The notes below the pieces were generated by a model. It searched no databases, had not been told where the DNA came from, and worked only from the letters and a program-made list of their open reading frames with translations. The position numbers were made by a program, and so were the translations under genes. A DNA stretch of 64,000 nucleotides from Shigella phage SH7, in the sequence record KX828711; one strand, 5' to 3'. Below are positions 1,976 to 59,713 of this stretch, piece by piece (within the stretch, counting starts at the first letter, position 1; each line of letters opens with the position of its first letter).

Positions 1976-1976
<1 letters not shown>

Positions 1977-5720: not shown

Positions 5721-5735
5721 TCTTTGACGATTTAA

Positions 5736-5751: not shown

Positions 5752-5768
5752 TTTAGTTGTTTTTATGG

Positions 5769-5776
5769 TATAAATA
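5769..5776 (+). promoter_or_regulatory. late promoter TATAAATA for gene 24
   Basis: Exact TATAAATA about 28 nt upstream of gene 24 ATG. Confidence 0.6.
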
Positions 5777-5803
5777 AATCATATAAACCAAAAGGAAAGC
5801 GCA

Positions 5804-7087
5804 ATGGCTAAAATCAACGAACTTCTGCGCGAATCAACCACAACGAATAGCAACTCAATCGGTCGCCCAAATCTCGTTGCTTTGACTCGCGCTACCACTA
5901 AATTAATATATTCTGACATTGTAGCAACGCAAAGAACTAATCAACCTGTTGCTGCTTTTTATGGTATCAAATACCTTAACCCAGACAATGAATTTACATT
6001 TAAAACTGGTGCTACTTATGCTGGCGAAGCTGGATATGTAGACCGAGAACAAATCACAGAATTAACAGAAGAGTCTAAATTAACTCTCAATAAAGGCGAT
6101 TTATTCAAATATAATAATATCGTTTATAAAGTATTAGAAGATACACCATTTGCTACCATTGAAGAAAGCGATTTAGAATTAGCTCTTCAGATTGCAATTG
6201 TTCTTTTAAAGGTTCGTCTATTTTCTGACGCAGCGTCAACGAGCAAATTTGAAAGCTCTGATAGCGAAATTGCGGATGCTAGATTCCAGATTAATAAATG
6301 GCAAACCGCAGTTAAATCTCGTAAACTTAAAACTGGCATCACAGTTGAATTAGCACAAGATTTAGAAGCAAATGGATTCGATGCTCCTAATTTCTTGGAA
6401 GATTTGCTTGCAACTGAAATGGCAGATGAAATCAATAAAGATATTCTGCAGTCTTTGATTACAGTATCAAAACGTTATAAAGTTACAGGAATTACTGATA
6501 CTGGATTCATTGATTTGAGTTATGCATCTGCACCTGAAGCTGGTCGTTCATTATACCGAATGGTGTGTGAAATGGTTTCACATATCCAGAAAGAATCAAC
6601 TTATACAGCAACGTTCTGTGTTGCTTCAGCTCGTGCTGCTGCGATTCTTGCTGCATCAGGTTGGTTAAAACATAAACCAGAAGATGACAAATATCTTTCA
6701 CAAAATGCCTACGGGTTCTTAGCTAATGGTTTACCGCTTTATTGCGATACTAACAGCCCATTAGATTATGTAATCGTTGGTGTAGTAGAAAATATCGGTG
6801 AAAAAGAAATTGTCGGATCAATTTTCTATGCTCCGTATACAGAAGGTCTTGACTTAGATGACCCTGAACATGTAGGTGCATTTAAAGTTGTAGTTGACCC
6901 AGAAAGCTTACAACCATCTATCGGTTTATTGGTTAGATATGCTTTATCTGCAAATCCTTACACTGTAGCAAAAGATGAAAAAGAAGCAAGAATAATTGAT
7001 GGTGGAGACATGGATAAAATGGCTGGTCGTTCAGATTTGTCTGTTTTATTAGGTGTTAAGCTACCAAAAATTATTGTTGATGAATAA
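5804..7087 (+). CDS. 24: capsid vertex protein gp24
   Basis: 427 aa ORF (T4 gp24 length); gp23-like fold region; position. Confidence 0.93.
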   Translation: MAKINELLRESTTTNSNSIGRPNLVALTRATTKLIYSDIVATQRTNQPVAAFYGIKYLNPDNEFTFKTGATYAGEAGYVDREQITELTEESKLTLNKGDLFKYNNIVYKVLEDTPFATIEESDLELALQIAIVLLKVRLFSDAASTSKFESSDSEIADARFQINKWQTAVKSRKLKTGITVELAQDLEANGFDAPNFLEDLLATEMADEINKDILQSLITVSKRYKVTGITDTGFIDLSYASAPEAGRSLYRMVCEMVSHIQKESTYTATFCVASARAAAILAASGWLKHKPEDDKYLSQNAYGFLANGLPLYCDTNSPLDYVIVGVVENIGEKEIVGSIFYAPYTEGLDLDDPEHVGAFKVVVDPESLQPSIGLLVRYALSANPYTVAKDEKEARIIDGGDMDKMAGRSDLSVLLGVKLPKIIVDE

Positions 7088-7093
7088 AACAAA

Positions 7094-7109
7094 GGGACCG
7101 AAAGGTCCC
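7094..7109. terminator. bidirectional hairpin terminator (gggacc-GAAA-ggtccc) between convergent genes 24 and rnlB
   Basis: Perfect stem with GNRA loop flanked by A-run and T-run. Confidence 0.7.
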
Positions 7110-7119
7110 CTTTGTTTAT

Positions 7120-8124
7120 TTAGCTCACCAACTCAATCCAAGCTGGACGAAGTACATCTTGTACCATTTTAACTAATTCCTTCTTAATCAAAGAAGGATT
7201 ATCCGCTTGAGTTAGAGTAATACCTTCACGAGAAGTTTCTTCCAAAATATCTTGAACAGTTAGTCCCATCACCTTTCCAAAATCTTTAGGACCAATTTCA
7301 CCAATTTTAGAAATAACGTTATTTACTCGGTTCAGTGTAACGTAACAAGCTAAAATTCCTACCAATTTGTTATCAGCTTCTGATAGTTCAACTTTAACTT
7401 TAATAGGCTTATCAGACTTTTTCTTTTCACTAAATTTGGAATTCTTGCATTTAATTGCTACACGATTGCCATTAGGCATCCAAGAAGGATAACAAGGTTT
7501 CAATACATATCCTTCAGCGGTAAATACTTCGCCTTTTGCTTCGGCATTCCAAACGCATTTATTTGCATCAACTAATCCAGCATGGTCTACTGTAAAATTA
7601 TAATCTTGGACGACAGAATCTAAATCATTTGGCAATTTAATAAGCTCTTCAAATTTACCGCGACCTAAAAGTGGAGCAATTTTAAATTTAAATGTATTGC
7701 AGAATGATTCCATCATATAATCATCGACATAAGTCACGTCACCACTTTCCATAGTAACAATAATGTCAAATACATAGAAATCTTTATCACCATAATCAAC
7801 ATTCTTCTGAATGCCAGGCCCAGCGAATTCACCAAAGACTTGATAAGATACAACTGCTGAAGTTTCCATAATATCTTGTACTGCTTTAATGGAATCATCG
7901 TAATTCTTTAGAATAATTTCATACCCAAAGAAATCTTCAGCAGGAAGAATCGGTCCAGTACGTTTAGCGCAAGTTACTTTATCACGCTCGATAATTAGTG
8001 AAAAGTTTGTGCCGTGAATCTTTTCACGAGCTACCCACTCCCCACCAGTCAATCCCAGGCTATAAAGTTTTTCAATAAATTTAGAGTTGTAATGATTTTC
8101 AAGACTGCTATACTTTTTAAACAT
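7120..8124 (-). CDS. rnlB: RNA ligase 2 (Rnl2)
   Basis: 334 aa; N-terminus [16 protein letters not shown] and nucleotidyltransferase lysine motif EKIHGTN. Confidence 0.9.
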
Positions 8125-10545: not shown

Positions 10546-10573
10546 AGATATATTTATTACATGGTATTTAGAC

Positions 10574-12085
10574 ATGACTGACATTAAAGTACATTTTTAT
10601 GATTTTAGTCACGTGAGAATTGATTGTGAAGAAAGTACATTTCATGAACTCCGTGATTTCTTTAGCTTTGAAGCTGATGGGTATCGTTTTAATCCGAAAT
10701 ACAAATATGGCCACTGGGATGGACGAATCCGTCTTTTAGATTATAATCGCCTTCTTCCATTCGGCTTAGTCGGGCAAATTAAAAAGTTCTGTGATAACTT
10801 TGGCTATAAAGCCTGGATTGACCCACAAATTAACGAAAAAGAAGAATTATCAAGAAAAGATTTTGATGAATGGCTTTCTAAATTAGAAATCTATTCAGGA
10901 AATAAAAGAATTGAACCACACTGGTATCAAAAAGATGCAGTGTTCGAAGGATTAGTTAATCGTCGTAGAATTCTTAATCTTCCAACATCCGCCGGTAAAT
11001 CTTTAATTCAAGCTTTGCTTGCACGTTATTATTTGGAAAATTATGAAGGTAAAATTCTTATCATTGTTCCAACAACTGCTTTAACAACTCAGATGGCTGA
11101 TGACTTCGTTGACTATCGTTTATTCAGTCATGCAATGATAAAGAAAATCGGTGGAGGAGCATCAAAAGATGATAAATATAAAAATGATGCACCAGTCGTT
11201 GTTGGTACATGGCAAACTGTAGTAAAACAACCAAAAGAATGGTTCTCACAGTTTGGAATGATGATGAATGATGAATGCCATCTTGCTACAGGAAAAAGTA
11301 TTTCATCTATCATATCAGGTTTAAATAACTGCATGTTCAAATTTGGTCTATCTGGTTCATTACGTGATGGCAAAGCCAATATCATGCAGTATGTTGGAAT
11401 GTTTGGTGAAATATTTAAGCCAGTAACGACTTCTAAGTTAATGGAAGATGGACAAGTAACTGAGCTAAAAATTAATAGTATTTTTCTTCGCTATCCCGAT
11501 GAGTTCACTACTAAATTAAAGGGAAAAACTTATCAAGAAGAAATAAAAATTATTACGGGGCTTAGTAAAAGAAATAAATGGATCGCTAAATTAGCTATTA
11601 AGCTTGCGCAAAAAGATGAAAACGCTTTTGTCATGTTTAAACATGTATCGCATGGTAAAGCTATTTTCGATTTAATTAAAAATGAATACGATAAAGTTTA
11701 TTACGTATCAGGAGAAGTTGATACCGAAACCCGCAATATAATGAAAACCTTAGCTGAAAATGGTAAAGGAATAATTATAGTAGCTAGTTATGGTGTATTT
11801 TCTACTGGTATTTCAGTTAAAAATCTGCATCACGTTGTTTTAGCGCACGGTGTTAAATCTAAAATTATTGTATTGCAAACAATCGGTCGTGTATTACGTA
11901 AGCATGGTTCTAAGACAATAGCAACAGTCTGGGACCTCATAGATGATTGTGGCGTTAAGCCAAAATCTGCTAATACGAAAAAGAAATATGTTCATTTGAA
12001 CTATCTTTTAAAACACGGCATTGATCGTATTCAGCGCTACGCAGATGAAAAATTTAATTACGTAATGAAAACAGTTAATTTATAA
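10574..12085 (+). CDS. uvsW: UvsW SF2 DNA helicase
   Basis: 503 aa; Walker A LPTSAGKS, DECH box MMMNDECH. Confidence 0.95.
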   Translation: MTDIKVHFYDFSHVRIDCEESTFHELRDFFSFEADGYRFNPKYKYGHWDGRIRLLDYNRLLPFGLVGQIKKFCDNFGYKAWIDPQINEKEELSRKDFDEWLSKLEIYSGNKRIEPHWYQKDAVFEGLVNRRRILNLPTSAGKSLIQALLARYYLENYEGKILIIVPTTALTTQMADDFVDYRLFSHAMIKKIGGGASKDDKYKNDAPVVVGTWQTVVKQPKEWFSQFGMMMNDECHLATGKSISSIISGLNNCMFKFGLSGSLRDGKANIMQYVGMFGEIFKPVTTSKLMEDGQVTELKINSIFLRYPDEFTTKLKGKTYQEEIKIITGLSKRNKWIAKLAIKLAQKDENAFVMFKHVSHGKAIFDLIKNEYDKVYYVSGEVDTETRNIMKTLAENGKGIIIVASYGVFSTGISVKNLHHVVLAHGVKSKIIVLQTIGRVLRKHGSKTIATVWDLIDDCGVKPKSANTKKKYVHLNYLLKHGIDRIQRYADEKFNYVMKTVNL

Positions 12086-21036: not shown

Positions 21037-21090
21037 CCTCATGTTATGTCAGTAAGACTACTATAACACAACACGAGGGACTTGTAAACT
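21037..21090 (-). promoter_or_regulatory. early promoter cassette (GTTTAC -35, TATAGT -10) plus leader; copy 1 of a 54 bp repeat
   Basis: Near-identical to 36806-36859 (1 mismatch). Confidence 0.55.
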
Positions 21091-23146
21091 ACATTTTGAA
21101 CTTTTTAGACATTCCGTTAATGTTAACCAAAGAAGCTAAGATTTGAGAAACTTCGTTTTCCTCTTCTTTTGATTCTTCTACAAGGAATTGATTAAATCCA
21201 GCCATTGGACGAACTTCACCAGTTTCCATTAGATGGTCGCCATCATATACTGATTCTTCTAATTGTTCAGAAGGAGGAACGATTGTACCTTCGATTAGAT
21301 ACTTGTTATAAGCAGTTTCTTTCATAAAGTAAGTACTTACTTTATTAATCTTCAGTAAAATTCCACGTGGTAGAATAACTTCAGCTTCTGATGGAAATCC
21401 TGATAAATGACCCGGAACGATAACTTTAACTCGTTCAGCTCCTTTAATTACCATACCCACGCTAGTTTCAGCATCTTCATTAGCATATGTAGAATGACTA
21501 CCCATATGCATCAAATCTTCTGCATCAACGGAACCTTCTCCTTCACCAGAAAATACTGCTCCGGAATCATCTAAGGCCATATAATTTTTACCATACTCAC
21601 CAAAGATATTTGGTTTAAGTGATGTAGATACGAAGTTCTTGAAATAGAACATTTTATTTTCAATGTTATGACGCAAAGTTTTAAAAGTAACTTCTTGTCC
21701 ACGGTAAAGTGTAGTTCCTGGAGGAAGAACTGAACCTTTAGCAAACGCAGAATCCATAGTCTCGATGTGCTTAATAGCGCGCTCCATGTATTCTTCACGT
21801 GTAGAATCAGGTTTACCTAAAAGGAATGAGTTCATTTCAACATACGAATCTGCACAATAATCTTCAATTACATCAGATTCAGCCTGAGTCAATCCTTTTG
21901 GAGTTACTTCAGTGCTTGCATATTCATACGCCTGAGCAGCGGATTCATCAATTAATTTATAAATGCCATTCATGACAAATTGAATAATAGCTGTCTTTTC
22001 ATCTGGCGTAGCTTTAGAACCTTTAACTAAATCATTGACAATTTTCTTAATAACATCAAAGCTATTAGAAATATTAATGTCAGCAAGATCGCTTAAAATT
22101 TTATCAGTTTTATAATCAAAAAATTCTTTATTCTTTAAATATTCTTGAGAACTTTGATATGTTATATCGCTCTGCAACTTGATAGATGGATCACGTAAAC
22201 GTGCATGGGCTAATGCAATATGACTTCGGAAGCTTTCTAGTTCATAATCACTAGATTTAAAACGAGAAGCACTCCTCATATCACCGATAGCTCCTTTGCC
22301 GAAGTTTGAACCAATCTGAATAACGCCAGAGTTCATTGGTCCTTCTGCTTTATATACCGGAACTTTAGATTCAAACTCTTGATATTTCTTAGCAGCAAAG
22401 CTATCACCCTGAAGTGAAGCATCAACAGTAGAATATTGAGCTTGTGCTGCTAATCGACGACTAATTTTAGTTTTCTGAATAACAGCTTGATCCGTACGCT
22501 TATCATTTTCTAAAGCAATAGAAGCAGCAACTGCGACAGCTTTAGGAACAGCATTACCTGTTTTAACGTCTACATAAACATCACCGACTTTCGATTCAAC
22601 TTTTGTGAATAACTCAGTTGAAATAGGAGGTACACCTGGAATGTCTTCTAAATTGGCATTTTTACGGTAAACCATAATATATGCATATTTCTTATCATAG
22701 TCCCAGATTTCCTTTAAAAGAACATATCGACCTGCTCCTTTAGTACGTACTAAACGGTCAGCAATAACTTGCATTTGACGAGCAGCGCCATTTGTTTTAC
22801 TTTTTAGTACGCGGAATAGGCATGCATCAATTTTATACTGTTTCATTGTTTGAAGAGCAGTATCAAAAACAGCATTAATGACGCCAATTGGATTTCCACC
22901 CAAGTTTTTAAGCTTAACTAATGATAATTTTTCATTAACACCTATCATTACGATATGCATCATTTTGTCGCCTGGCTTAACGTTTTTATTCGTATCACCG
23001 CCAGAGGTGTATGTACAAAATCTAAATCCAGGAAGCACGCTTTCTTCACCGGCTTGAATAGCAAAAATTTGTGGTATTTTATGCTTAGGATTTAAGTTAA
23101 CAACCGGCGCCGAAGCGCCGTCAAATAATTCTGTAATAAGTTCCAT
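21089..23146 (-). CDS. Alt-family ADP-ribosyltransferase paralog (occupies alt.-1/alt.-2 position)
   Basis: 685 aa; N-terminus MELITELFD shared with neighbour; C-terminal ART motifs LYRGQ, STS, EAEVILPRG. Confidence 0.85.
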   Translation of the reverse strand: MELITELFDGASAPVVNLNPKHKIPQIFAIQAGEESVLPGFRFCTYTSGGDTNKNVKPGDKMMHIVMIGVNEKLSLVKLKNLGGNPIGVINAVFDTALQTMKQYKIDACLFRVLKSKTNGAARQMQVIADRLVRTKGAGRYVLLKEIWDYDKKYAYIMVYRKNANLEDIPGVPPISTELFTKVESKVGDVYVDVKTGNAVPKAVAVAASIALENDKRTDQAVIQKTKISRRLAAQAQYSTVDASLQGDSFAAKKYQEFESKVPVYKAEGPMNSGVIQIGSNFGKGAIGDMRSASRFKSSDYELESFRSHIALAHARLRDPSIKLQSDITYQSSQEYLKNKEFFDYKTDKILSDLADINISNSFDVIKKIVNDLVKGSKATPDEKTAIIQFVMNGIYKLIDESAAQAYEYASTEVTPKGLTQAESDVIEDYCADSYVEMNSFLLGKPDSTREEYMERAIKHIETMDSAFAKGSVLPPGTTLYRGQEVTFKTLRHNIENKMFYFKNFVSTSLKPNIFGEYGKNYMALDDSGAVFSGEGEGSVDAEDLMHMGSHSTYANEDAETSVGMVIKGAERVKVIVPGHLSGFPSEAEVILPRGILLKINKVSTYFMKETAYNKYLIEGTIVPPSEQLEESVYDGDHLMETGEVRPMAGFNQFLVEESKEEENEVSQILASLVNINGMSKKFKM

Positions 23147-23149
23147 GAT

Positions 23150-25210
23150 TTATCCTTGAACGAACTTGTAAGGCATGTTTGTAATATCTATGCAAGACGC
23201 AATAATTCCAAGAGATGATTCTACTTTCTGTTTAACATTTGATGAAACAAATGATGCAAAGTCAACTCTGTCTTCTATTTCAATATCACCTGTCATTGCA
23301 ACCAATTCACCAGTTTCCATTAGACGGTCACCGTCATAAATGACTGATTCGGTGAGTTCTTCCGTAGTCATAACTTCAGCTTGAATAAGCTTGTTGTTAG
23401 TTTTGACTGTTCCATCATTGTAAGATGCATCAGTTATTTTATTAACTTTGACCATTAATCCACGTGGCAAAATGACTTCCATTTCATTTGAAGGCGCTAA
23501 ACTTCCGCCTGGTAAAACAACATTGACTTTATCAGCCCCAGTAATAACCCATCCAATTCCGACTAAATTATCGCTAGAATTAACAAGCCCTTCATCATTT
23601 TTATCGATAGAAATGTTTAGACGCTTTTCATCTGGTAAAACACCAACAGCTGAATCAGTCATCCAAGTACCAAAAATGTTTGGATATAATGATGTTGATA
23701 CAAAATTTCTAAAATAAAAAACTCGATTTTTTACCAATGCTTCATATATTGAAGGTAACATTCGCTGTGAACGATATAAAGTAATACCCTTTGGCAATCG
23801 ATCACCATTTTTAAAGGCTGAATCTAAATTATCGATGGCTTGTTCTATTTCAGGTGCTGTTAAAATACTTGTACGCTCATCTGGATTATATAATCCCAAA
23901 AGAGCATTATTCATGTCTACATATCCTGAACCTACATATTCACGAATTCCGCGTTTTTGCGCTGGCGTGTATTTAGATGAATCTTTATTTTCGACTATAG
24001 AATGCAATGACCATCCAACAGTAAGAGCATATCCACGTAATTCTCTTCGAATAATCTTTGTTTTTATTGCATTCCAAGAATTTTGCACTAACTCATTATT
24101 CGCAGTGTCTTGATTTAAATGCGAATGCTTGTTAATATTTCTTTCTAACCAAGCACCTTTATATTTTTCTAAAGTATCATCGACTATAGAAGCAATAGTT
24201 TCTAAAGTTTTTATTGAAGTAATAGATTCTTTTCGTAATCTTTCTAAAGCTTTATTTTTTATTTCTGTATTAACATCAGATTCTTTATCTTCAGGAATTA
24301 TAGAAGCTTCTCTGAATGCCATTCCAGCTGTAACACTATTAAGAGCATTCTCTAATGCAAATCCTGAAGTAGAAATAACAGTTAATTCATTAGCATCAGA
24401 AATTAAAGGAGCGTCAGCGGGTTTATTTAATTCTGCTGCTGAAGCCTCAAATTTTTGAAACATCGGCGTTTCAAATCTAGAAGATTCCAACGACTGACTT
24501 TGTGCAATTGCTCTACGGGAAATTTTAACTTTAACGATTACAGCTTGGTCAGAACGTTTATCATTTTCTTGTGCAATAGATGCTGCAATTGCCTCATTTT
24601 TAGTTACTTGGGCTCCAGTATCTTTATTGATATAAACATCACCGACCTTCGATTCAACTTTAGTAAAGAGCTCGGTACTAATTTCCGGAACTCCTGGAAT
24701 GTCTTCTAGTGATACATTTTTGCGATGTATAAGAATATATGCATACTTTTTATCATAATCCCAGAGTTCCTTAAGAAGGACGTATCTGCCACCTGAACGA
24801 CTACGGATAAGTCTATCAGCAATAACTTGAATTTGTCGAGCTTGGCCAGCAGTTTTAGACTTAAGAATACGAAGCATACAAGCATCAATTTTATACTGAC
24901 GCATCGTTTGCATTGCAACAGTAAAAACTGAATTGATATAATTAATTGGGCTTGGACCAAGACCTTTTAATTTAGCAATTGAACCTTTAGCAGTTAATGT
25001 AAAAGGAACAATATGCATCATTTTATCGCCCATTTTTAAATCGCGATTAGTATCACCTCCAGATGTATAGGTACATAAACGAAAGCCTGGTTGTTCAATT
25101 GCGTCATCGACATGAACTGAAAAAATTTGTGGTATCTTCTTCTTTGGATTTAAGTTTGTAATCGGAAGAGTAGTATCTTCGTCAAATAATTCTGTAATAA
25201 GTTCCATCAT
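23150..25210 (-). CDS. alt: Alt ADP-ribosyltransferase (packaged, injected with DNA)
   Basis: 686 aa; ART motifs LYRSQ, STS, EMEVILPRG. Confidence 0.85.
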   Translation of the reverse strand: MMELITELFDEDTTLPITNLNPKKKIPQIFSVHVDDAIEQPGFRLCTYTSGGDTNRDLKMGDKMMHIVPFTLTAKGSIAKLKGLGPSPINYINSVFTVAMQTMRQYKIDACMLRILKSKTAGQARQIQVIADRLIRSRSGGRYVLLKELWDYDKKYAYILIHRKNVSLEDIPGVPEISTELFTKVESKVGDVYINKDTGAQVTKNEAIAASIAQENDKRSDQAVIVKVKISRRAIAQSQSLESSRFETPMFQKFEASAAELNKPADAPLISDANELTVISTSGFALENALNSVTAGMAFREASIIPEDKESDVNTEIKNKALERLRKESITSIKTLETIASIVDDTLEKYKGAWLERNINKHSHLNQDTANNELVQNSWNAIKTKIIRRELRGYALTVGWSLHSIVENKDSSKYTPAQKRGIREYVGSGYVDMNNALLGLYNPDERTSILTAPEIEQAIDNLDSAFKNGDRLPKGITLYRSQRMLPSIYEALVKNRVFYFRNFVSTSLYPNIFGTWMTDSAVGVLPDEKRLNISIDKNDEGLVNSSDNLVGIGWVITGADKVNVVLPGGSLAPSNEMEVILPRGLMVKVNKITDASYNDGTVKTNNKLIQAEVMTTEELTESVIYDGDRLMETGELVAMTGDIEIEDRVDFASFVSSNVKQKVESSLGIIASCIDITNMPYKFVQG

Positions 25211-32974: not shown

Positions 32975-33216
32975 GTTGATCCCAGCTCCTTACTTTCAAC
33001 ATTTTTAACTAATTTGACAGAAACTAATTCAGCATCTTGGGTAATCATTACCGGACCTTCTTCATACTCTTCAAGATATTCTAGAGCTTTCTTTTTAGCT
33101 TCTTCCTTCGTATCAGTTTGAGCATAGATATAGAACATACAACCAGTAATACCTACTACTTTCCACTTAATTTCTTTATCAGTTTTAATTTCAAATTTAC
33201 TTACAGAATCATCTTT

Positions 33217-33495
33217 TCAAACTTCTTCGAAAAAAGAATATTCTAACATATAAGCAATTGAAAATAACGGGCTAACTTTATAGGATTCACCCATTACATC
33301 AACAGCTTTATACCAACAATCATCAATTTCGCGTTTAATGCTAATAACATTTTTCGCAGGATCTATTTTTACTTTAAATGAATTTTCTCCAATAAACTGA
33401 GCAATTCGTTTATTAGCCCCGCAAGTTTCATTAAAAATATCTTTATATCCAGCTTTAAAGCGATAAACCTTATCTTCTTCAAACCATTCGCTCAT
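33217..33495 (-). CDS. hypothetical protein; in-frame open continuation beyond its TGA stop (see findings)
   Basis: 92 aa ORF; 80 further sense codons follow the TGA in the same frame. Confidence 0.5.
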   Translation of the reverse strand: MSEWFEEDKVYRFKAGYKDIFNETCGANKRIAQFIGENSFKVKIDPAKNVISIKREIDDCWYKAVDVMGESYKVSPLFSIAYMLEYSFFEEV

Positions 33496-34036: not shown

Positions 34037-35426
<1,390 letters not shown>

Positions 35427-35430
<4 letters not shown>

Positions 35431-36861: not shown

Positions 36862-38449
<1,588 letters not shown>

Positions 38450-38476
38450 AATAAAATGGGCCTTACGGCCCACTCC

Positions 38477-39655
38477 TTAAAAATATTTTTTAAAACTCAT
38501 CATAACTTTATCATCAACATCATTATCAATCTGTGCAACAAGGTAAGATGACAGTTCTACTTCTTGTGGCGCGGATTGAACATTATCAGAATTAAGATAT
38601 TCACGAATCCAAGGATATGGATGTTTAACCGGAGCATCGGTAATTGGGCATGGAAGACCACACTGTTTCATACGAGATACAGTTAAGTAATCAATAAAGC
38701 TCCACATGCTATTTGTATTTAATCCAGGAACATCGCCATCTTTAAATAAATGAACTGCCCAATCTTTTTCTTGGCGGTTAACTTCCATGAAAATATCAAC
38801 TGCTTCTTGTTCACACTCTTGAGCAATTTTAACCCATTCATCACCATCAGTACCGGATTGAAGTTGACGAATAATATATTGAGTGCCTTTAAGGTGAAGC
38901 TGCTCATCACGTGCAATGAACTTCATAATCTTGGCATTACCTTCCATGATTTCCATGTTCTTATGGAAGTTAAAGGTACATGCGAAAGATACATAAAAAC
39001 GAATAGCTTCTAGGGCATTAATAACGTGCAAACAGAGGTAAAGAGAACGCATTAGTTCGTATTTGCATTCTTCTACATGCATAAGGCTATTTGAATATGC
39101 GTCCAAATCATATTCATTCTCTGAAAAACACCTAAAAATTTCTTTTGCGTTTTCCCATTCACGAGTTTTCTCAATAACATCATCATAATAACGACCAATA
39201 GATTCAGCACGTTTCATGATAGCTTTATCTAATACAATCTCATCAAATACCTTCGATGGATCAGTATAAAGATTTCGCATGATATGTGTATATGAACGGC
39301 TGTGAATAGTTTCACTAAAAGTCCACGTAGCAACCCATGTATCAAGGCTCGGGTCTGAAATTAATGACATAAGTACAGCAGACGGTGCACGACCCTGAAT
39401 GCTATCCAAAAGTGATTGATACTTCAGGTTATTAGTAAAAATATTTTGCTGATACTGAGGAAGCTTATTAAACTGTGCAGCATCCATCATTAAGTTTACT
39501 TCTTCAGGACGCCAGAAAAATGATAATTGCTTTTCGGTCAAATCTTCAAAAACTTTATGGCGTTGAATATCATAACGCGCAATACCAAGACCTGAACCGA
39601 AGAACATAGGTTCTTTTAAAACATCAACTGGATTTGTATTAAAAACTGTAGACAT
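38477..39655 (-). CDS. nrdB: ribonucleotide reductase small subunit NrdB (intronless)
   Basis: Continuous ORF; start MSTVFNTNPVD with GAGGAAAA RBS; TAATG overlap with upstream HNH gene. Confidence 0.93.
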   Translation of the reverse strand: MSTVFNTNPVDVLKEPMFFGSGLGIARYDIQRHKVFEDLTEKQLSFFWRPEEVNLMMDAAQFNKLPQYQQNIFTNNLKYQSLLDSIQGRAPSAVLMSLISDPSLDTWVATWTFSETIHSRSYTHIMRNLYTDPSKVFDEIVLDKAIMKRAESIGRYYDDVIEKTREWENAKEIFRCFSENEYDLDAYSNSLMHVEECKYELMRSLYLCLHVINALEAIRFYVSFACTFNFHKNMEIMEGNAKIMKFIARDEQLHLKGTQYIIRQLQSGTDGDEWVKIAQECEQEAVDIFMEVNRQEKDWAVHLFKDGDVPGLNTNSMWSFIDYLTVSRMKQCGLPCPITDAPVKHPYPWIREYLNSDNVQSAPQEVELSSYLVAQIDNDVDDKVMMSFKKYF

Positions 39656-40386
39656 TAATTTTTCCTCTTTAAAATTCTGCCGTGTTTCCAACCTGGCGGT
39701 ATAATATCATCTTTACCTATAAGCGTGCATTCACTTCCATTATTAATCCATTTCTTACCGCGGATTCCTTTATAATCTCTTGGTTTTATTTTGTCAAACT
39801 TTGCATCAAGTTGATATGACCATCTAAATCCATAAGCATATTGAAATTTACCCTCGGCACAATATTTGATATTTGACCCGTTTCCATTAACTGACCGGGA
39901 CGCTGCCGCAATAGAGTGAAAGGTTTCTATGAAATCCCCATCTAATGAGAATTTATGTATTTCTACAGATGGGCACGCATATCTATTCACGTTAGATACA
40001 TGCTGTTTAGTTTCGTTTTTATGATGCTTGCCTAGCATCCCTTTAGGATGAGGATTATTTTTCCAATATTTCTTAAAGAACTCAGAATTAGCTTTAGCAA
40101 ATAATTTTCTGTGTAAGCTGTACAATCTGTTATTAATTCTATTGCCAGCTTTATCTGTTGCCATTAACGTTAACGCAGAGGCAAGACCAAAATGACCTTC
40201 ATTTATCTTACATAGTAATAGATGAGCTATAAAATGTTCTCTGGCTGTTAATTCAACTAAATTTTCCTTATCATCAGAACCTCCCATACATTTAGGGATT
40301 ATATGATGTGTCTCTTTATATTCTAGTAAAGATTCCCGAGCCTGAGCTCGGGAAATTAGGTCGTTATAGATTTTTTGATAATTCAT
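39655..40386 (-). mobile_element. free-standing HNH homing endonuclease (mobE-like) between nrdA and nrdB
   Basis: 243 aa; HNH motif HHIIPKCMGGSDDKENLVELTAREHFIAH; C-terminal CAEGK...YGFRW DNA-binding-type motif. Confidence 0.85.
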
Positions 40387-42650
40387 TACAATTTACACGC
40401 TGCGCAATCATCGGCTTTTGGAGTTTCTATTTCATAATCATCAGTACCGGAACCATCACGAGTATTATGATAATAGAAGTTTTTAATGCCATAATACCAT
40501 CCGTATAGCATGTCATCAATCATTACAGACATTGGAACCTTTCCTTTTGGAAAAATCTGCGGGTCATAATATGTATTCGCTGAAGCTGATTGACATACCC
40601 ATTTAAGCATAATAGCTACCTGCGTAAGATAAGGTTTATTACCTTTCTTAGCTAATTTCCACGTATAATCATATAGGTCTATGTTATGCTCAATATTGGG
40701 CACGACTTGATTAAAGGAACCCTCTTTTGATTCTTTAACAGAGACTGGTCCACGTGGAGGCTCGATACCGTTTGTACTGTTAGAAACTTGGGAAGATGAC
40801 TCACATGGCATAAGTGCTGATAATGTGCTATTACGGATGCCAAAGAGCTTAAGGTCTTCCCGCAGCGACGACCAGTCACAAACGTATTTTGGAGCTGCGA
40901 TTTGGTCAATCTTTTTATTGTACCAGTCGATAGGTAATTCGCCTCGAGACCAACGAGTGTCTGAATAATATTCGCAAGGTCCTTTTTCTTTGGCGAGCTT
41001 AATGGATGCTTTAATGAGTCCATACTGTAGTCTCTCAAATAGTTCATGTGTTAAATCGTTAGCATCTTCATAAGAAGCAAAATTACTTGCCAGCCAAGCT
41101 GCATAGTTAGTAACACCTACGCCAAGGTTTCGACGCTTTTTAGCTTTTTCTGCTTCAGGAACTGGATATCCTTGGTAGTCCAAAAGATTATCAAGAGCAC
41201 GAACTTGGACTTCTGCTAATTCATTAATTTTATCTTGGTCTTGCCAATCGAAGTTATCCAACACAAATGCAGATAACGTGCACAATCCAATTTCAGCATC
41301 AGGACTATTCACATCATTTGTTGGAATAGCAATTTCACAACACAAGTTACTCTGGCGAATAGGTGCCTTTTCGCGAATAAACGGAGTATAGTTATTCGTA
41401 TTATCAATGAACTGCACATAAATCCTTGCTGTTCCTGAGCGTTCAGTCATGAGTAATTCAAACAGTTCACGGGCTTTAATACGCTTTTTACGAATATTAG
41501 GGTCTTTTTCTGCGGCTTCGTATAATTCGCGGAAACGGTCTTGGTCTTTAAAATAAGAATAATAAAGTTCGCCACCCATTTCATGTGGACTGAACAAAGT
41601 AATGTAATCATTCTTTCCGAATCGTTCCATCATCAAATCATTCAGTTGAACGCCATAATCCATATGACGGATACGGTTTTCTTCTACGCCTTTGTTATTT
41701 TTCAAAACGAGAAGATTTTCAACTTCCAAATGCCAAATAGGATAATAAGCAGTAGCAGCGCCGCCACGAATTCCGCCCTGTGAGCATGATTTAACAGCAG
41801 TCTGAAAATGTTTCCAAAAAGGAATAACACCGGTATGGCGTACTTCACCTGTGCCAATCTTAGAACCTTCAGCACGAATCATACCAACGTTAATACCAAT
41901 TCCAGCACGTTTGGAGATATATTCAACAATCGAAGCGGAAGCCTTATTGATAGACTTTAATGAATCACCTGCCTCAATAACAACGCATGAACTAAACTGC
42001 CGAGTTGGAGTACGGCAACCAGCCATAATAGGGGTTGGCAGTGAAATCTGTCGAGTAGATACTGCTTCATAAAAACGAATAACATGTTTTAATCTATCAA
42101 CAGGTTCATCTTGATGCAATGCCATTCCAATAGTCATAAATGCAAACTGTGGAGTTTCATAAATTTGACCAGTGGTTTTATCTTTAACTAGATATTTTTC
42201 TTTTAATTGCATCGCCCCGGAATAAGTAAATTCCATATCCCGTTCATGCTTAATTTTTGATTCTAAAAATGTAATTTCTTCTGCTGAATATTTTGACAAC
42301 AATTCAGGGTCATATTTACCTTCATTTACGCAGTAAGAAATATGGTCAATAAATGAACGTGGTTCATACTGTCCATAAACATGCTTACGAAGAGCGAACA
42401 TTAAACAGCGTGCAGCTACGTATTGATAATCAGGCTCTTCAACTGAAATAGAATTCGCAGCAGCCTTAATTACAATGGTTTGAATGTCATCAGTTGTCAT
42501 TCCATCACGGAGATATGATTTAATATTTTCATATAATTCATAAGGATCTACAGATGTTCCTTCAGCTGCCCAAGATAAAACTTTAATAATTTTTTGTGGG
42601 TCAAAGCTCTGAGAAACACCACTACTTTTGATAACATTAATTAATTGCAT
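40386..42650 (-). CDS. nrdA: ribonucleotide reductase large subunit NrdA
   Basis: 754 aa (T4 NrdA length); ATP-cone N-terminus. Confidence 0.96.
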   Translation of the reverse strand: MQLINVIKSSGVSQSFDPQKIIKVLSWAAEGTSVDPYELYENIKSYLRDGMTTDDIQTIVIKAAANSISVEEPDYQYVAARCLMFALRKHVYGQYEPRSFIDHISYCVNEGKYDPELLSKYSAEEITFLESKIKHERDMEFTYSGAMQLKEKYLVKDKTTGQIYETPQFAFMTIGMALHQDEPVDRLKHVIRFYEAVSTRQISLPTPIMAGCRTPTRQFSSCVVIEAGDSLKSINKASASIVEYISKRAGIGINVGMIRAEGSKIGTGEVRHTGVIPFWKHFQTAVKSCSQGGIRGGAATAYYPIWHLEVENLLVLKNNKGVEENRIRHMDYGVQLNDLMMERFGKNDYITLFSPHEMGGELYYSYFKDQDRFRELYEAAEKDPNIRKKRIKARELFELLMTERSGTARIYVQFIDNTNNYTPFIREKAPIRQSNLCCEIAIPTNDVNSPDAEIGLCTLSAFVLDNFDWQDQDKINELAEVQVRALDNLLDYQGYPVPEAEKAKKRRNLGVGVTNYAAWLASNFASYEDANDLTHELFERLQYGLIKASIKLAKEKGPCEYYSDTRWSRGELPIDWYNKKIDQIAAPKYVCDWSSLREDLKLFGIRNSTLSALMPCESSSQVSNSTNGIEPPRGPVSVKESKEGSFNQVVPNIEHNIDLYDYTWKLAKKGNKPYLTQVAIMLKWVCQSASANTYYDPQIFPKGKVPMSVMIDDMLYGWYYGIKNFYYHNTRDGSGTDDYEIETPKADDCAACKL

Positions 42651-43196: not shown

Positions 43197-43207
43197 TTAA
43201 ATTAAAA

Positions 43208-44068
43208 TTACACCGCCATCTTTCCTTTAATTGGCGGGTGAGATACATAGTTTTTAAGAACAAAATCATGTGGCTTTGCGAATTGACTCAACCAAAATAC
43301 CTGCGATTCTGTGTTCCATTCATCAAATTCATCTGGAAATTTTAATTGTAATTCGCATAAATCCATAGGTTCACGACGCAAAATTTCTTTACATTGTTCT
43401 ACGTGATTCATATAGATATGAGTATTACCACCAGAAAATATCAAATCTCCTGGAATAAGATTACACATCTTAGCTACAATATGAACTAACGTAGCATATG
43501 ATGCAATATTAAATGGAAGACCGAGGAAAACATCTACCGAACGTTGATACCACTGCAAATCCAAATAGCCATTACGCACATTAAACTGATAGAACATATG
43601 ACAAGGTGGTAATGCCATATATTTAAGTTCAGCTGGATTCCATGCAGAAACAATTTGACGCCTATCATTTGGTAGTTTTTTAATACGATCAACAACTTCT
43701 ATAATTTGGTCTACACCACCAAAATCGCGCCATTGTTTTCCATAAATTGGACCAAGTTCACCACTATGGTATCCTAAATCTTTTGCTTGATTTTCGTAAT
43801 TTTCATCCCAGACTGTTTTGCCTTGAATTAATGAATCATGTTGAATTAATCGCAAATCATTGACATTTGTGCTTCCCGATAAAAACCATATTAGCTCAGC
43901 AATGCAAGCTTTCCAGGCGAGCTTCTTAGTCGTTACTGCAGGAAAACCTTTAGTTAAATCCCAGCGCAATTTAGTACCGAACAAAGCAATTGTTCCTGTG
44001 CCTGTTCGGTCATCGGTTTCATAGCCATTTTCCAGGATATCTTTAATTAAAAATTGGTATTGTTTCAT
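43208..44068 (-). CDS. td: thymidylate synthase (intronless)
   Basis: Track start is TTG 44080; ATG 44068 gives MKQYQ...; continuous 286 aa ORF. Confidence 0.95.
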   Translation of the reverse strand: MKQYQFLIKDILENGYETDDRTGTGTIALFGTKLRWDLTKGFPAVTTKKLAWKACIAELIWFLSGSTNVNDLRLIQHDSLIQGKTVWDENYENQAKDLGYHSGELGPIYGKQWRDFGGVDQIIEVVDRIKKLPNDRRQIVSAWNPAELKYMALPPCHMFYQFNVRNGYLDLQWYQRSVDVFLGLPFNIASYATLVHIVAKMCNLIPGDLIFSGGNTHIYMNHVEQCKEILRREPMDLCELQLKFPDEFDEWNTESQVFWLSQFAKPHDFVLKNYVSHPPIKGKMAV

Positions 44069-45097
<1,029 letters not shown>

Positions 45098-47456: not shown

Positions 47457-47536
47457 TTTTATTTCCTTTTTAATTTAATTAACAGTTGGTGCTATGACGA
47501 TGTATGACCTCATAGCTGGTCAGTGAGATAATTATA
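47457..47536 (-). promoter_or_regulatory. gene 32 leader: A/U-rich translational operator, upstream stem-loop, and late promoter TATAAATA
   Basis: Minus strand UUAAUUAAAUUAAAAAGGAAAUAAAAAUG; inverted repeat GCTATGA...TCATAGC; tatttata at 47529-47536. Confidence 0.6.
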
Positions 47537-47555
47537 ATCTATTTATAATAAGCAA

Positions 47556-55545: not shown

Positions 55546-58500
55546 ATGGCTACTTTAAAACAAATACAATTTAAAAGAAGCAAAACGGCAGGTCAACGTC
55601 CAGCTGCTTCAGTATTAGCCGAAGGTGAATTGGCTATAAACTTAAAAGATCGTGTACTTTTTACTAAAGATGATCAAGGAAATATTATTGACTTAGGTTT
55701 TGCTAAAGGCGGTAGTATTGACGGGAATGTTATTCATAAAGGCAATTATAACCAAACTGGCGATTATACTTTAAACGGTACATTCACCCAGACTGGTAAT
55801 TTTAATTTAACCGGTATTGCTCGAGTAACTCGTGATATTATTGCTGCTGGGCAGATTATGACTGAAGGCGGAGAACTTATTACAAAAAGTTCAGGAACGG
55901 CACACGTTCGTTTTCATGATTCCGCCGACCGTGAACGCGGTATTATTTTTTCTCCTGCTAATGACGGTTTAACTACACAGGTAGTTAACATCAGAGTTCA
56001 AGATTACAAAGCTGGTTCAGAAAGCACTTTCGCTTTTAATGGAAATGGTTTGTTTTCTTCACCAGAAGTTTTTGGGTGGAAATCTGTATCAACTCCGGTA
56101 ATTTATACCAATAAAGTTATCACCAATAAAAAAGTTAAAGATGATTATGACATCTATTCGACGGCAGACAATGTTCCATTGTCTGAAAGCACTACTGCTA
56201 TTAATCATCTTCGTGTTATGCGTAATGCAGTTGGTTCTGGTATTTTCCATGAAGTTAAAGATAATGATGGAATAACATGGTATAGTGGAGATGGATTAGA
56301 CGTTTATCTTTGGTCATTTACTTGGAGCGGCGGAATTAAATCAAGTCACTCAATTTCCATCGGTTTAACACCCGGACCTAAGGATTACTCAATATTAGGA
56401 CCGTCTAGTATCGCTTTAGGAGATAATGATACTGGATTTAAATGGCATCAAGACGGATATTATTTCAGTGTTAACAATGGCACAAAAACGTTTTTATTTA
56501 GTCCCAGCGAAACAACTAGCCTAAGAAAATTTGTAGCTGGATATTCTACTAACGGAACCGATTTAACTACTCCTCCAACTGAAAATTATGCTCTTGCTAC
56601 TGTAGTGACATACCATGATAATAACGCGTTTGGGGATGGTCAGACTCTTTTAGGATATTATCAAGGCGGTAACTATCATCACTATTTCCGCGGTAAAGGT
56701 ACCACAAACATTAATACTCACGGTGGTTTGTTAGTTACTCCTGGTAATATTGATGTTATTGGCGGTTCTGTTAATATCGATGGTAGAAATAATGCTTCTA
56801 CAGCGATGTTTAAAGGTAACACAACAGGTAGTAGTTCTGTGGATAACATGACAATTTCCGTTTGGGGCAATACGTTTACTAATCCTAGTGTAGGTAATCG
56901 TAAAAACGTCATGGAAATTTCTGATGCAACTAGCTGGATGAGTTATATTCAAAGACTTACAACAGGTGAAGTAGAAATGAACGTTAACGGTTCATTTGAA
57001 TCATCTGGTGTTACTGCTGGAAATAGAGGAGTTCACACAACGGGCGAAATTTCATCTGGGGCTGTGAATGCGCTTCGTATTTGGAACGCAGATTATGGAG
57101 CTATTTTTAGACGTTCAGAAGGCAGTCTTCATATTATTCCAACTGCTTACGGTGAAGGTAAATATGGCGATATCGGTCCACTTCGCCCGTTTAGTATGGC
57201 TTTAGATACCGGTAAAGTTACTATTCCAGATTTACAATCAAGTTACAATACGTTTGCTGCTAACGGTTATATTAAATTTGTTGGTCATGGAGCGGGTGCC
57301 GGCGGTTATGACATTCAATATGCTCAAGCGGCTCCTATTTTCCAGGAAATTGATGATGATGCTGTAAGCAAATATTATCCTATTGTTAAACAGAAGTTTT
57401 TAAATGGTAAAGCTGTTTGGTCTTTAGGTACTGAAATTAGTTCAGGTACATTCGTTATTCATCATCTGAAAGAAGATGGTTCACAAGGCCATACGTCTCG
57501 TTTTAATCAAGACGGTACTGTTAACTTCCCAGATAACGTTTCTGTCGGCGGCGGTGAAGCTACTATTGCTCGCAATGGTAATATCTGGTCTGATATCTGG
57601 AAAACGTTTACTTCAGCAGGCGACGTAACTAATATTCGCGATGCAATAGCTACTCGTGTTGCTAAAGAAGGTGATACGATGACCGGTAGGTTGACTTTAT
57701 CTGCTGGAAATGATGCCCTTGTTTTAACTGCAGGCGCGGGTGCTTCATCGCACATCCGTAGTGATGTAGGTGGTACAGGTAACTGGTATATAGGCAAAGG
57801 CGGCGGCGACAATGGTCTAAGTTTTTACAGTTACATTACACAAGCCGGTGTGAACATAACAAATAACGGCGAAATAGCGCTTTCTCCTCAAGGACAAGGA
57901 GCGTTTAATTTTAATAGAGACCGCCTTCATATAAACGGTACACAATGGGTTGCGCATAAATCTGGCGCCTTTGGTGACCAATGGAGTTTAGAAGCTCCGA
58001 TATTTATAGATTTTGGTAGTGTCAGTAATGACTGCTATTATCCTATTATTAAAGGAAAATCTGCTATTACTAATGAAGGATACATATCTGGTGTTGATTT
58101 TGGTATGCGTCGTATCACTAATAACTGGGCGCAAGGTATTATTCGTGTAGGTAACCAGGAAAACGGTTCTGACCCACAAGCTGTATATGAATTTCACCAT
58201 AACGGAACTCTGTATGTTCCTAACATGGTTAAAACTGGAGCAAGATTATCAGCTGGCGGCGGCGACCCGGTGTGGACTGGGCCATGTCTTGTTATTGGTG
58301 ATAATGATACTGGTTTAGTCCATGGCGGTGATGGCCGAATCAATATGGTTGCCAATGGTGTTCATATTGCTTCATGGTCATCTGCTTATCATCTCCATGA
58401 AGGTCTTTGGGATACTACTGGTGCTTTGTGGACTGAGCAAGGAAGAGCTATTATTTCTTTTGGTCATTTAATCCAACAGAGTGATGCCTATTCTACATTT

Positions 58501-58857
58501 GTCCGTGATGTTTATGTCCGTTCTGATATTCGCGTTAAAAAAGACCTCGTTAAATTTGAAAATGCTTCTCAGAAGCTTTCTAAAATTAACGGTTACACTT
58601 ATATGCAGAAGCGAGGCCTGGATGAGGAAGGTAATCAGAAATGGGAACCTAACGCTGGTTTAATTGCTCAAGAAGTTCAAGCTATTTTACCAGAATTAGT
58701 TGAAGGCGACCCTGATGGTGAAGCTTTACTTCGTTTGAACTATAACGGTGTAATTGGTTTAAATACAGCTGCAATCAATGAGCATACTGCAGAAATTGCG
58801 GAACTTAAATCAGAAATTGAAGAACTTAAAGCATTAGTTAAATCATTGTTAAAATAA
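55546..58857 (+). CDS. 37: long tail fibre distal subunit gp37 with C-terminal intramolecular-chaperone-like domain
   Basis: 1103 aa; C-terminal SDIRVKKDL...[15 protein letters not shown]...coiled coil. Confidence 0.9.
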
Positions 58858-58862
58858 TAAGA

Positions 58863-58876
58863 GGGGCTTCGGCCCC
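58863..58876 (+). promoter_or_regulatory. hairpin (ggggc-UUCG-gcccc) abutting gene 38 Shine-Dalgarno
   Basis: Hairpin followed directly by ttGGAGG and ATG 58889. Confidence 0.5.
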
Positions 58877-58888
58877 TTGGAGGTTTAT

Positions 58889-59683
58889 ATGGCAGTAACA
58901 GGACCGTGGGTAGGATCGTCTGCAGTAGTTAATACAGGACAAAATTGGATGGGCGGCGCGGCCCAACGATTAAGAATGGGTGCTCCATTTTGGATGAGTA
59001 ATATGATAGGTCGATCTGTTGAAATAATTCACACGCTTGGAGCAGACCATAACTTCAATGGTCAATGGTTCCGAGATAGATGTTTTGAGGCAGGTAGTGC
59101 ACCTATAGTGTTTAATATCACCGGAAATTTGGTATCATATTCCAGAGACGTTCCTTTATTCTTCATGTACGGAGATACACCTAATGAATATGTTCAATTA
59201 AATATTGGTGCTGGAGCTCATATGTGGGGTAGAGGTGGACAAGGTGGATGGACTCATTCTGGTGGAGATGGTAATGGTCAACAGGGTGGACATTGTATTC
59301 AAAATGACATTGGTGGTCGATTAAGAATTAATAACGGCGGAGTAATTTGTGGCGGTGGTGGCGGTGGTGGCGGTATCGCTTATCGTCCTCACTCTGGTGC
59401 AAACTGGCAGGATATTGGTGGCGGTGGAGGAAGACCATTTGGCCCAGGAGGTGGCGGTGGTTATTCAGGAGGTGCTGCTTCTTATGACGGCCCAGGAGGT
59501 GGTTATAATTATGGTAATGCTCATTCTGGCCAGGGCGGTGATGCTGGCGCAAATGGACAAAATGCCTGGCATGATGGCGGTAAAGTACTAAAAGTCGGTG
59601 CTGGCGGGGCCGCAGGTTATGCTGTCATAGGGTCTGCTCCAACATGGCAAAATGTTGGAATAATATATGGTCCAAGAGTATAA
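58889..59683 (+). CDS. 38: gp38 receptor-recognising adhesin, T2-type with glycine-rich motifs
   Basis: Start MAVTGPW; several poly-Gly blocks ([18 protein letters not shown]) separating variable segments. Confidence 0.85.
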
Positions 59684-59713
59684 TTTGAATAAATATCCTT
59701 AAAAGGAGGGTCT

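Follow-up and report, generated by a model that had tools for sequence, protein, structure and literature searches.

The open reading frame (ORF) lying between nrdA and nrdB in the DNA of Shigella phage SH7 (record KX828711; the whole 64,000-nucleotide stretch analyzed is referred to as the window) is very probably an RB3-type allele of mobE, that is, a free-standing HNH homing endonuclease gene, with the expression, homing action, and non-T4 target proposed below. The window belongs to a Tequatrovirus (T4-like phage), and mobE of such phages has previously been described, deposited, and annotated; the gene is thus a re-identification of a textbook selfish element. Functional data on MobE, namely, site-specific nicking and over-inheritance in mixed infection, come from the T4 allele (PMC2790892), with which the RB3-type allele has only the nuclease head in common, and the window carries no immunity at the T4 nick site; consequently, transfer of the annotation "cuts nrdB at nt 122–126" is unjustified.

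Organization of the nrdA–nrdB Locus and Identity of mobE

All genes of the locus are encoded by the complementary strand: nrdA at 40386–42650, mobE (243 aa, ATG start) at 39655–40386, and nrdB (392 aa) at 38477–39655. At the junction aaattgTAATGaattat, the nrdA stop codon TAA (40388–40386) and the mobE start codon ATG (40386–40384) have one base in common, forming a TAATG overlap (40384–40388) with no Shine–Dalgarno sequence upstream. At the junction aaaaatTAATGtctaca, the mobE stop codon TAA (39657–39655) and the nrdB start codon ATG (39655–39653) likewise have one base in common, forming a second TAATG (39653–39657). Thus, the interval 39653–40388 given in an earlier note on this DNA corresponds to the ORF together with both overlaps, and the description there of a 243-aa HNH gene with TAATG at each end agrees with the ORF and the junction letters. 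The note had also equated this position with that of T4 mobE, and both T4 and RB3 indeed have mobE exactly there.

The gene was 99.9–100% identical at the nucleotide level to the "homing endonuclease" genes of vB_EcoM_G50 and other Tequatrovirus phages (100% with one GenBank phage record and 99.9% with seven others, all eight being Tequatrovirus-like and annotated in this way). The mobE-family similarity on which the earlier note had made its assignment depend was evident in the comparison with RB3 mobE (95.9% nt and 97% aa identity over the full length). RB3 MobE (AY262130.2; RB3_226 in NC_025419) and the vB_EcoM_G50 protein (YP_010070056.1) are likewise 243 aa long, occupy the same slot, and have the same TAATG overlaps. 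The RB3 and T6 mobE sequences were reportedly deposited by Sandegren et al. 2005 (NAR 33:6203). A protein identical to that of the window was already present in the protein database (P0001), in which 862 homologues were found. The window protein matched PHROG_655 "homing endonuclease" (4.6 × 10−57), as did T4 MobE (6.5 × 10−52) and T4 NrdB.1 (1.6 × 10−8), and the dN/dS ratio of mobE relative to RB3 mobE was 0.09. On these sequence grounds (PHROG_655 match, database homologues, and dN/dS), a chance ORF is excluded.

Domain Structure of the MobE Protein

The HNH catalytic core, delimited by the Pfam HNH match and by conservation, comprised residues 27–55 (HHIIPKCMGGSDDKENLVELTAREHFIAH; 40222–40308, complementary strand). 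The Pfam HNH domain (PF01844) was matched by residues 22–44 with 19.7 bits, slightly under the curated cut-off of 21.4, whereas T6 MobE scored 24.4. Residues H27, H28, P31, G36, N42, E50, H51, and H55 were invariant in 48 homologues (identity down to 35%); these include the HNH catalytic residues (H27, H28, N42, H51, and H55) on whose presence the assignment had also been made to depend. In the AF2 model, strands 25–28 and 43–46 were followed by helix 48–61, and the H-N-H residues H28, N42, and H51 are accordingly predicted to lie in a beta-beta-alpha fold of the HNH/His-Me finger kind. In T4 MobE, deletion of residues 33–62 abolishes nicking (PMC2790892). In a search of PDB sequences, the sole match was marginal (E = 0.092) and involved the HNH module of a group II intron maturase; it supports only the HHIxPxxxGGxDxxxNLV motif.

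The alignment with T4 MobE proposed in the earlier note covered residues 1–105 only (62% identity): residues 1–60 were about 93% identical, residues 61–105 were weakly similar, and the remainder was unrelated. The HNH head was therefore matched, whereas full-length orthology was not found. At the nucleotide level, the segment common to T4/T6-type mobE comprised the first ~56 codons (40217–40386, complementary strand; ~92% identity), with T4 homology stopping at about 40217. T4 MobE (NP_049844) and the intact T6 MobE (213 aa, ABI48942) have the insertion site, UAAUG coupling, terminator, and HNH motif of the window allele; however, their tail contains NUMOD3, whereas that of window MobE contains NUMOD1 and a SegE-like C-terminal motif.

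The NUMOD1 DNA-binding motif (PF07453) was located at residues 147–177 (39856–39948, complementary strand) with 25.9 Pfam bits, exceeding the gathering cut-off of 22.8, and close homologues also had precomputed NUMOD1 matches. Residues 199–241 (39664–39792, complementary strand) formed a motif that also occurs in the C-terminal repeats of T4 SegE (phmmer, 2.2 × 10−5; BLASTP, 44% identity over 43 aa, 7 × 10−8), in which it spans about 40 residues (WxNNG...IPxGxxxGR). T4 SegE has a GIY-YIG catalytic domain, not HNH, and is located between inh and uvsW, a slot that is empty in the window; Pfam detected no GIY-YIG domain, the catalytic mark of Seg proteins, in the MobE ORF.

The AF2 model of MobE had a pLDDT of 90.6 and a beta-hairpin at residues 211–224, and its best PDB fold match was I-HmuI (1u3e, probability 0.97), an HNH nicking enzyme of Bacillus phage SPO1. 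Like MobE, I-HmuI has an extended HNH head, linker helices, and a helix-turn-helix-type module; however, the sequence identity was 12%, and I-HmuI is intron-encoded, whereas window mobE is free-standing between two genes. MobE is thus predicted to be built of an HNH (beta-beta-alpha-metal) head, a helical linker, a NUMOD1 helix-turn-helix-like module, and a SegE-like hairpin.

Expression Signals

The nrdB ribosome-binding site, which the earlier note had placed within the coding end of the endonuclease gene, was recovered there as a GAGG Shine–Dalgarno sequence (39667–39664, complementary strand) 8 nt ahead of the ATG. In the 5′ end of mobE, a terminator scan identified an intrinsic-terminator hairpin (40333–40354, complementary strand) with a 9-bp stem, a 4-nt loop, and a short U tract, situated about 27–30 nt past the AUG (predicted RNA folding energy −17.9 kcal/mol, z = −3.9). 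Its stem matches that of T4 at every base, and in T4 the same element was experimentally shown to be a weak terminator (PMC2790892); translational coupling was proposed for the UAAUGA at the nrdA/mobE junction of T4 (PMC2988022). By analogy with these T4 features, mobE, having no ribosome-binding site of its own, would be translated by ribosomes ending on nrdA through UAAUG coupling, and the weak terminator ~30 nt into the gene would lower the mobE transcript level. [quoted passage not shown] In T4, a middle promoter for nrdB is reported to lie downstream of mobE. A search for MotA-box middle promoters at the thresholds used gave none in the mobE 3′ end, the T2H junction, T4, or RB3; since T4 itself gave no match, the scan was probably too strict. 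A sigma-70 scan revealed nothing convincing near the nrdB start.

Distribution and Gene-Conversion Footprint

The RB3-type mobE ORF was intact and full-length in at least 53 records, and its combination with an intronless nrdB was the commonest arrangement (41 of the 53 carrier records). The distribution was patchy, with mobE found in about 7% of related records (53/795), and the gene was near-identical across backgrounds otherwise diverged by 5%. Wherever homologues of the RB3-type protein at 50–68% identity were found, their gene occupied the nrdA/nrdB slot; one such case was a Vibrio phage of 246 kb. Of the 34 nrdB loci obtained from IMG/VR, only a few were close.

Analysis of informative sites revealed that the window coincides with the mobE-carrying phages G50 and PSGBLB0006 from position −126 of nrdA to nt 402 of nrdB, at all sites except nt 54 and 57, whereas farther upstream in nrdA it matches the mobE-less Sf21 and L009. 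Thus, the last ~126 nt of nrdA resemble those of mobE-carrying relatives and not those of the mobE-less backbone. On the mismatch lists, the imported tract had seemed to stop within some 50 nt of the nrdB start, an end point that would rule out cutting at nt 122–126; this was rejected because the G50-like tract reaches nt 402.

Target of the RB3-Type Enzyme

During co-infection with a mobE-less relative, MobE would nick or cut the nrdA/nrdB region of that relative, as homology to T4 MobE suggests, and repair templated on the mobE-carrying genome would then move mobE together with flanking markers. T4 MobE, which is mobile, promoterless, and dependent on its HNH motif, nicks nrdB at nt 122–126, as mapped in T2 (PMC2790892; PMC2988022). 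Attempts to clone T4 mobE did not succeed (PMC2790892). Locus comparison located the equivalent of this site in the window at nrdB nt 114–131 (39525–39542, complementary strand), with the canonical sequence of the mobE-less type (GAAAAGCAATTA, encoding EKQL). Codons 42–44 of nrdB were altered (ERQI or EKSL) in all five T4/T6-type carriers examined, whereas EKQL was retained in 11 of 11 RB3-type carriers, the window included, and, with few exceptions, in the ~30 mobE-less loci. The protective substitutions in nt 114–131 are absent from the window and from all the RB3-type carriers, in which the coding sequence for EKQLSFFWRP is retained. Since, in addition, the DNA-binding tail differs from that of T4/T6 MobE, the target of the RB3-type enzyme is probably different from nrdB nt 122–126; it should be noted that the comparison is a correlation over about 45 loci that are phylogenetically non-independent.

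The slot would then be contested by two MobE forms with a common head, 5′ flank, and terminator but unrelated tails and hence different targets; carriers of the RB3 type could be cleaved by T4/T6-type MobE at nrdB codons 42–44, and the enzyme of the RB3 type would have its cut site elsewhere, the nrdA 3′ end or the junction being possible locations. We consider the chances of this scenario to be evenly balanced. If it is true, it would represent a natural homing endonuclease retargeted through tail swapping and homing of allele against allele. Target mapping of RB3-type MobE would inform how modular homing endonucleases change specificity.

A functional MobE that keeps the T4 target at nrdB nt 122–126, with its tail docking differently on the FFWRPEE-coding block and the carrier protected by subtle synonymous differences, is possible but rather doubtful. 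The slot, the catalytic head, and the terminator are all as in T4, the G50-like tract within nrdB (nt 1–402) includes nt 122–126, and Wilson & Edgell grouped both allele types as "mobE-containing" (PMC2790892). Immunity could hinge on single synonymous differences, for example at nrdB nt 117, which is G in five of five RB3-type Tequatrovirus and A in four of five mobE-less ones. However, between nrdB nt 100 and 150 the window differs from the experimentally nicked T2 by three synonymous differences only, and from the mobE-less L010 by a single base; non-synonymous changes at the site occur in every T4/T6-type carrier examined and in no RB3-type carrier, and the DNA-binding modules of the two MobE types are unrelated.

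It is very unlikely that mobE is a decaying or domesticated remnant, immobile and retained for the nrdB signals (ribosome-binding site and translational coupling), although the nrdB ribosome-binding site and start do lie in the mobE 3′ end, the corresponding signals in T4 mobE have been argued to select against its deletion (PMC2790892), and the T4 reference copy is annotated as two pieces, mobE (141 aa) and nrdB.1 (83 aa). The intact ORF in 53 records, the low dN/dS, and the catalytic residues invariant in distant homologues argue against decay, and the patchy presence combined with near-identity in diverged backgrounds is typical of recent horizontal spread. The least probable of the readings is that MobE serves chiefly as a phage–phage weapon or defence, cutting the ribonucleotide reductase genes of competitors to exclude them, and is not purely selfish. 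The T4 homing endonucleases do cause marker exclusion of T2 (PMC2790892), and the target would lie within an important nucleotide-metabolism operon; however, the sequence offers nothing that separates such a role from ordinary homing, the difference being one of consequence and not of mechanism.

For an RB3-type enzyme with a target of its own, the nrdA 3′ end and the intergenic junction, which are disrupted by the insertion, are a possible candidate target. The C-terminus of NrdA is DDCAACKL in mobE carriers, including the window, and EDCSSCKL in mobE-less Tequatrovirus. As a signature of the target site, this difference was set aside as a weak lead only: mobE-less phages of other genera carry DDCAACKL too, so that the pattern is compatible with simple hitch-hiking.

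Introns, seg Genes, and Other Endonucleases in the Window

The continuity of nrdB and td reported in the earlier note was upheld. NrdB gave a single continuous Ribonuc_red_sm match (1.1 × 10−36), and the product of td (43208–44068, complementary strand; 286 aa) gave a Thymidylat_synt match over its full length (2.8 × 10−94). The window is collinear with T4 except that ~600 nt at 38979/38982 (the position of the T4 nrdB intron) and ~1017 nt at 43519/43520 (that of the T4 td intron) are missing, and Rfam detected neither a group I intron nor any other family across the 64 kb. RB3 carries both introns, that of nrdB with an intact I-TevIII and that of td with I-TevI, whereas the window has neither. 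The statement that intron-borne endonucleases are lacking holds only for td and nrdB; the third intron host of T4, nrdD, lies beyond the window. As no Rfam family was found in the window and the mobE ORF adjoins two intact coding genes, mobE is not of the intron-encoded type (I-TevI, I-TevIII).

The reported absence of seg genes was also borne out, the slots of T4 segD, segE, and segG being shrunk to 61, 20, and 36 nt, respectively. A regular-expression search for GIY-YIG motifs missed even denA, and phmmer was used instead; with T4 SegD, SegE, and SegG, I-TevI, and RB3 I-TevIII as queries, no seg or I-Tev homologues were found among the stop-to-stop ORFs of at least 50 aa in the window. The adjacent denA (38039–38473), which has a GIY-YIG domain, is the orthologue of T4 endonuclease II (4.7 × 10−96) and not a seg gene. 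In the stretch matching T4 100.8–164.5 kb, there is thus one homing endonuclease in the window versus six in T4.

Gene Order and Identity of the mobE Gene

By its sequence, the source of the window is assigned to Tequatrovirus (T4-like phages): a 24-kb piece of it aligned to 479 phage records with coverage of 80% or more, for the most part with 90–99% identity, and the window was collinear with T4 from ~100.8 to 164.5 kb. On the minus strand, td (43208–44068), two small nrdA.2- and nrdA.1-like ORFs (DUF5496 and DUF4326) between td and nrdA, nrdA (40386–42650), the 243-aa mobE ORF (39655–40386), nrdB (38477–39655), denA (38039–38473), and rnlA (36862–38022) follow one another in this order, as identified by ORF and domain calls. 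TAATG was found at each end of the 243-aa ORF, with one base shared with the nrdA stop and one with the nrdB start, and the nrdB Shine–Dalgarno sequence GAGG was located 8 nt 5′ of the nrdB start, inside mobE. The coordinates, double overlap, and ribosome-binding site in the coding end described in the earlier note were exact when read from the sequence, and the position, given there as that of mobE in T4, was borne out, with T4, RB3, and G50 each containing a gene in the same slot.

The mobE feature has been described before and carries annotation in public records: at the nucleotide level, the ORF had 100% identity to a single GenBank phage record and 99.9% to a further seven (most of the eight annotated as "homing endonuclease"), the gene deposited as RB3 mobE had identities of 95.9% (nt) and 97% (aa), and the exact protein was present in the protein collection (P0001). 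Pfam returned NUMOD1 above the threshold and HNH just under it, and PHROGs gave a "homing endonuclease" match (4.6e-57). Residues H27, H28, P31, G36, N42, E50, H51, and H55, which correspond to the HNH signature, were invariant in an alignment of 48 homologues with identity down to 35%. The conserved catalytic residues, together with the domain and profile matches, uphold the earlier call of an HNH endonuclease; the observation is confirmed and its interpretation supported. The protein is under purifying selection, since dN/dS relative to the RB3 gene was 0.09. The AlphaFold model had a pLDDT of 90.6 and a pTM of 0.54, the latter as expected for a beads-on-a-string protein, and its nearest fold and best PDB match was the HNH nicking homing endonuclease I-HmuI (probability 0.97).

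T4 mobE is promoterless and co-transcribed with nrdA, and a weak terminator hairpin 27 nt past its AUG causes 30–50% termination (Wilson & Edgell, PMC2790892); translational coupling has been proposed for the UAAUGA overlap (review, PMC2988022). In the window, the overlap was identical to that of T4, and a hairpin with the same stem was located at 40354–40333 (−17.9 kcal/mol, z = −3.9). The scan for a MotA-type nrdB promoter gave no match in the 3′ end of the window mobE allele but was likewise blank on T4 and is therefore uninformative.

Two MobE Forms in One Slot

Between T4 and the window, DNA identity was ~92% across the nrdA end and as far as mobE codon ~56; from there to the nrdB start, the two could not be aligned. 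In the protein alignment with T4 MobE, residues 1–60 were ~93% identical, residues 61–105 were weakly similar, and the sequence beyond residue 105 was unrelated. The T4/T6-type allele combines HNH and NUMOD3, as in the 213-aa T6 MobE, whereas the RB3-type allele of the window combines HNH, NUMOD1, and a C-terminal motif; therefore, two allele classes occupy one slot. In the database search, full-length matches contained NUMOD1 and were ~241–248 aa long, and numerous NUMOD3 proteins of 213 aa covered only 41% of the query. In other genera, too, RB3-type homologues with 50–68% identity occupied the nrdA–nrdB slot; Salmonella phage Melville and a 246-kb Vibrio phage are examples.

In T4, the slot is annotated as mobE (141 aa) and nrdB.1 (83 aa) (6717–7417 of the compared locus; T4 139716–140416), whereas T6 has a single 213-aa MobE (230–871 of its locus). 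NrdB.1 was near-identical to T6 MobE residues 139–213 and extended the PHROG_655 profile from the point where T4 MobE stops. T4 mobE and nrdB.1 are thus two pieces of the T6 form: either the T4 gene used in the experiments carries a frameshift compared with T6, or the reference sequence contains an error.

The ~40-residue C-terminal motif WxNNG...IPxGxxxGR (MobE residues 199–241, window 39664–39792) is common with T4 SegE, in which it occurs twice (residues 117–196). SegE is a GIY-YIG endonuclease, whereas RB3-type MobE is an HNH endonuclease, and the motif illustrates how DNA-binding modules are shuffled from one nuclease family to another. In the Tequatrovirus-like IMG/VR contig L041, the slot (1409–3001) contained an ORF of 530 aa with no relation to MobE of either type; this ORF may correspond to Hef, an element reported in phage U5 (PMC2988022). 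Another compared locus, L033, also had a ~1.6-kb insert there.

Putative Target Site

[quoted passage not shown] Nucleotides 100–150 of nrdB were compared across about 45 loci. NrdB codons 41–45 encoded EKQLS in nearly all of the ~30 loci with an empty slot or a non-mobE occupant (e.g., T2H, Sf21, L009, L010, and L040; the exceptions were EKQLG in L033 and ERSLS in L041, with its Hef-like ORF), as well as in the 11 RB3-type loci (window, G50, PSGBLB0006, RB3, L011, L017, L020, L021, L045, L046, and L047). The five T4/T6-type loci had ERQIS (T4) or EKSLS (T6, L048, L049, and L050), changes that coincide exactly with the published nick site; L041 was altered at the same codons (ERSLSFFWRP). In the nick region, the window had three differences from the experimentally nicked T2, all synonymous. 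Because the canonical nick-site codons are kept and the DNA-binding tail is different, the RB3-type enzyme likely does not use the T4 site; the same pattern, a correlation among related genomes in both respects, suggests that the window phage would be a substrate for T4/T6-type MobE. Within Tequatrovirus, carriers and non-carriers showed fixed differences only at nrdB codon 2 and in the final 28 nt of nrdA, and the nrdA 3′-end difference was not carrier-specific in other genera.

Mosaic Structure around mobE

Informative sites were assessed against two pairs of references, carrier-like (G50 and PSGBLB0006) and empty-slot (Sf21 and L009). In nrdA upstream of −184, nearly all informative sites of the window agreed with the empty-slot references. 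Between −126 and nrdB nt 402, mobE included, all sites were of the carrier type apart from nt 54 and 57, and at nt 430–608, in a hypervariable nrdB patch (nt ~455–610, window 39047–39200), the window was again of the empty-slot type. Genomes whose mobE was 99.9–100% identical to that of the window differed by several percent in the adjoining nrdB. This mosaic is the pattern that gene conversion leaves on either side of a homing endonuclease gene, and it does not locate the cut position. The nrdB patch matched Sf21 and L009, had only ~65–75% identity to T4, T2H, RB3, and G50, and ended ~67 nt upstream of the T4/RB3 I-TevIII intron position; it resembles a short tract acquired by gene conversion from an nrdB that is more distant. 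Over ~6 kb, the only differences between the window and the IMG/VR contig L011 were 69 mismatches, which clustered in this patch. The 3′ part of td (43200–43400) had 94–97% identity to Sf21 and only 65–80% to T4, T2H, RB3, and G50, and is another short mosaic patch.

Introns, seg Genes, and Backbone

The nrdB intron with I-TevIII (~600 nt in T4) was missing at 38979/38982, and the td intron with I-TevI (~1017 nt in T4) at 43519/43520; Rfam detected no group I introns or RNA families of any other kind in the 64 kb. T4 segD, segE, and segG were missing from their slots (5731–5792, 10560–10580, and 47519–47555, respectively), and phmmer with the T4 Seg proteins, T4 I-TevI, and RB3 I-TevIII found no homologue among all window ORFs of at least 50 aa. 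Insertions specific to the window relative to T4 encoded no nuclease; their content was a second alt paralogue along with small hypothetical ORFs. The earlier statements that nrdB and td are intronless, that seg genes are absent, and that a single free-standing endonuclease is present without intron-borne ones therefore hold within the window (nrdD, host of the third T4 intron, lies outside). Among 53 records with this mobE allele, the nrdB intron, scored as a match split into two pieces spanning 2.5 kb, was present in 12 and absent in 41; thus, RB3-type mobE with intronless nrdB is the usual arrangement in this set.

In td (43490–43560), a CAACG motif, corresponding to the I-TevI cleavage motif, was kept 5′ of the site at which the intron inserts (tatCAACGttcggtagatgttttcctcggt/cttccattt, slash at this site), and for this reason the window phage is probably a recipient for the td intron. 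The frd–td spacer (44081–44271, ~190 nt) contained no intact ORF, only fragments of 21–33 aa. The corresponding interval contains td.1 (115 aa) in T2H, T6, RB3, and G50 and an ORF of 68 aa in Sf21, whereas the two genes overlap in T4; the window spacer probably represents td.1 in a decayed state.

The alt gene (ADP-ribosyltransferase) was present as two full-length paralogues in tandem, at 21089–23146 and 23150–25210 (685 and 686 aa), as in G50, whereas T4 has one alt and the remnants alt.-1 and alt.-2. The distal tail-fibre region (55712–59689; 3′ part of gene 37 and gene 38) did not align to T4, and the corresponding G50 genes are annotated as a T2/T6-like gp38 adhesin. At 32978–33493 and 35128–35430, two small insertions with respect to T4 each contained one hypothetical ORF (92 and 100 aa, respectively) with no significant Pfam match; an ORF at the latter position was also present in RB3 and Sf21.
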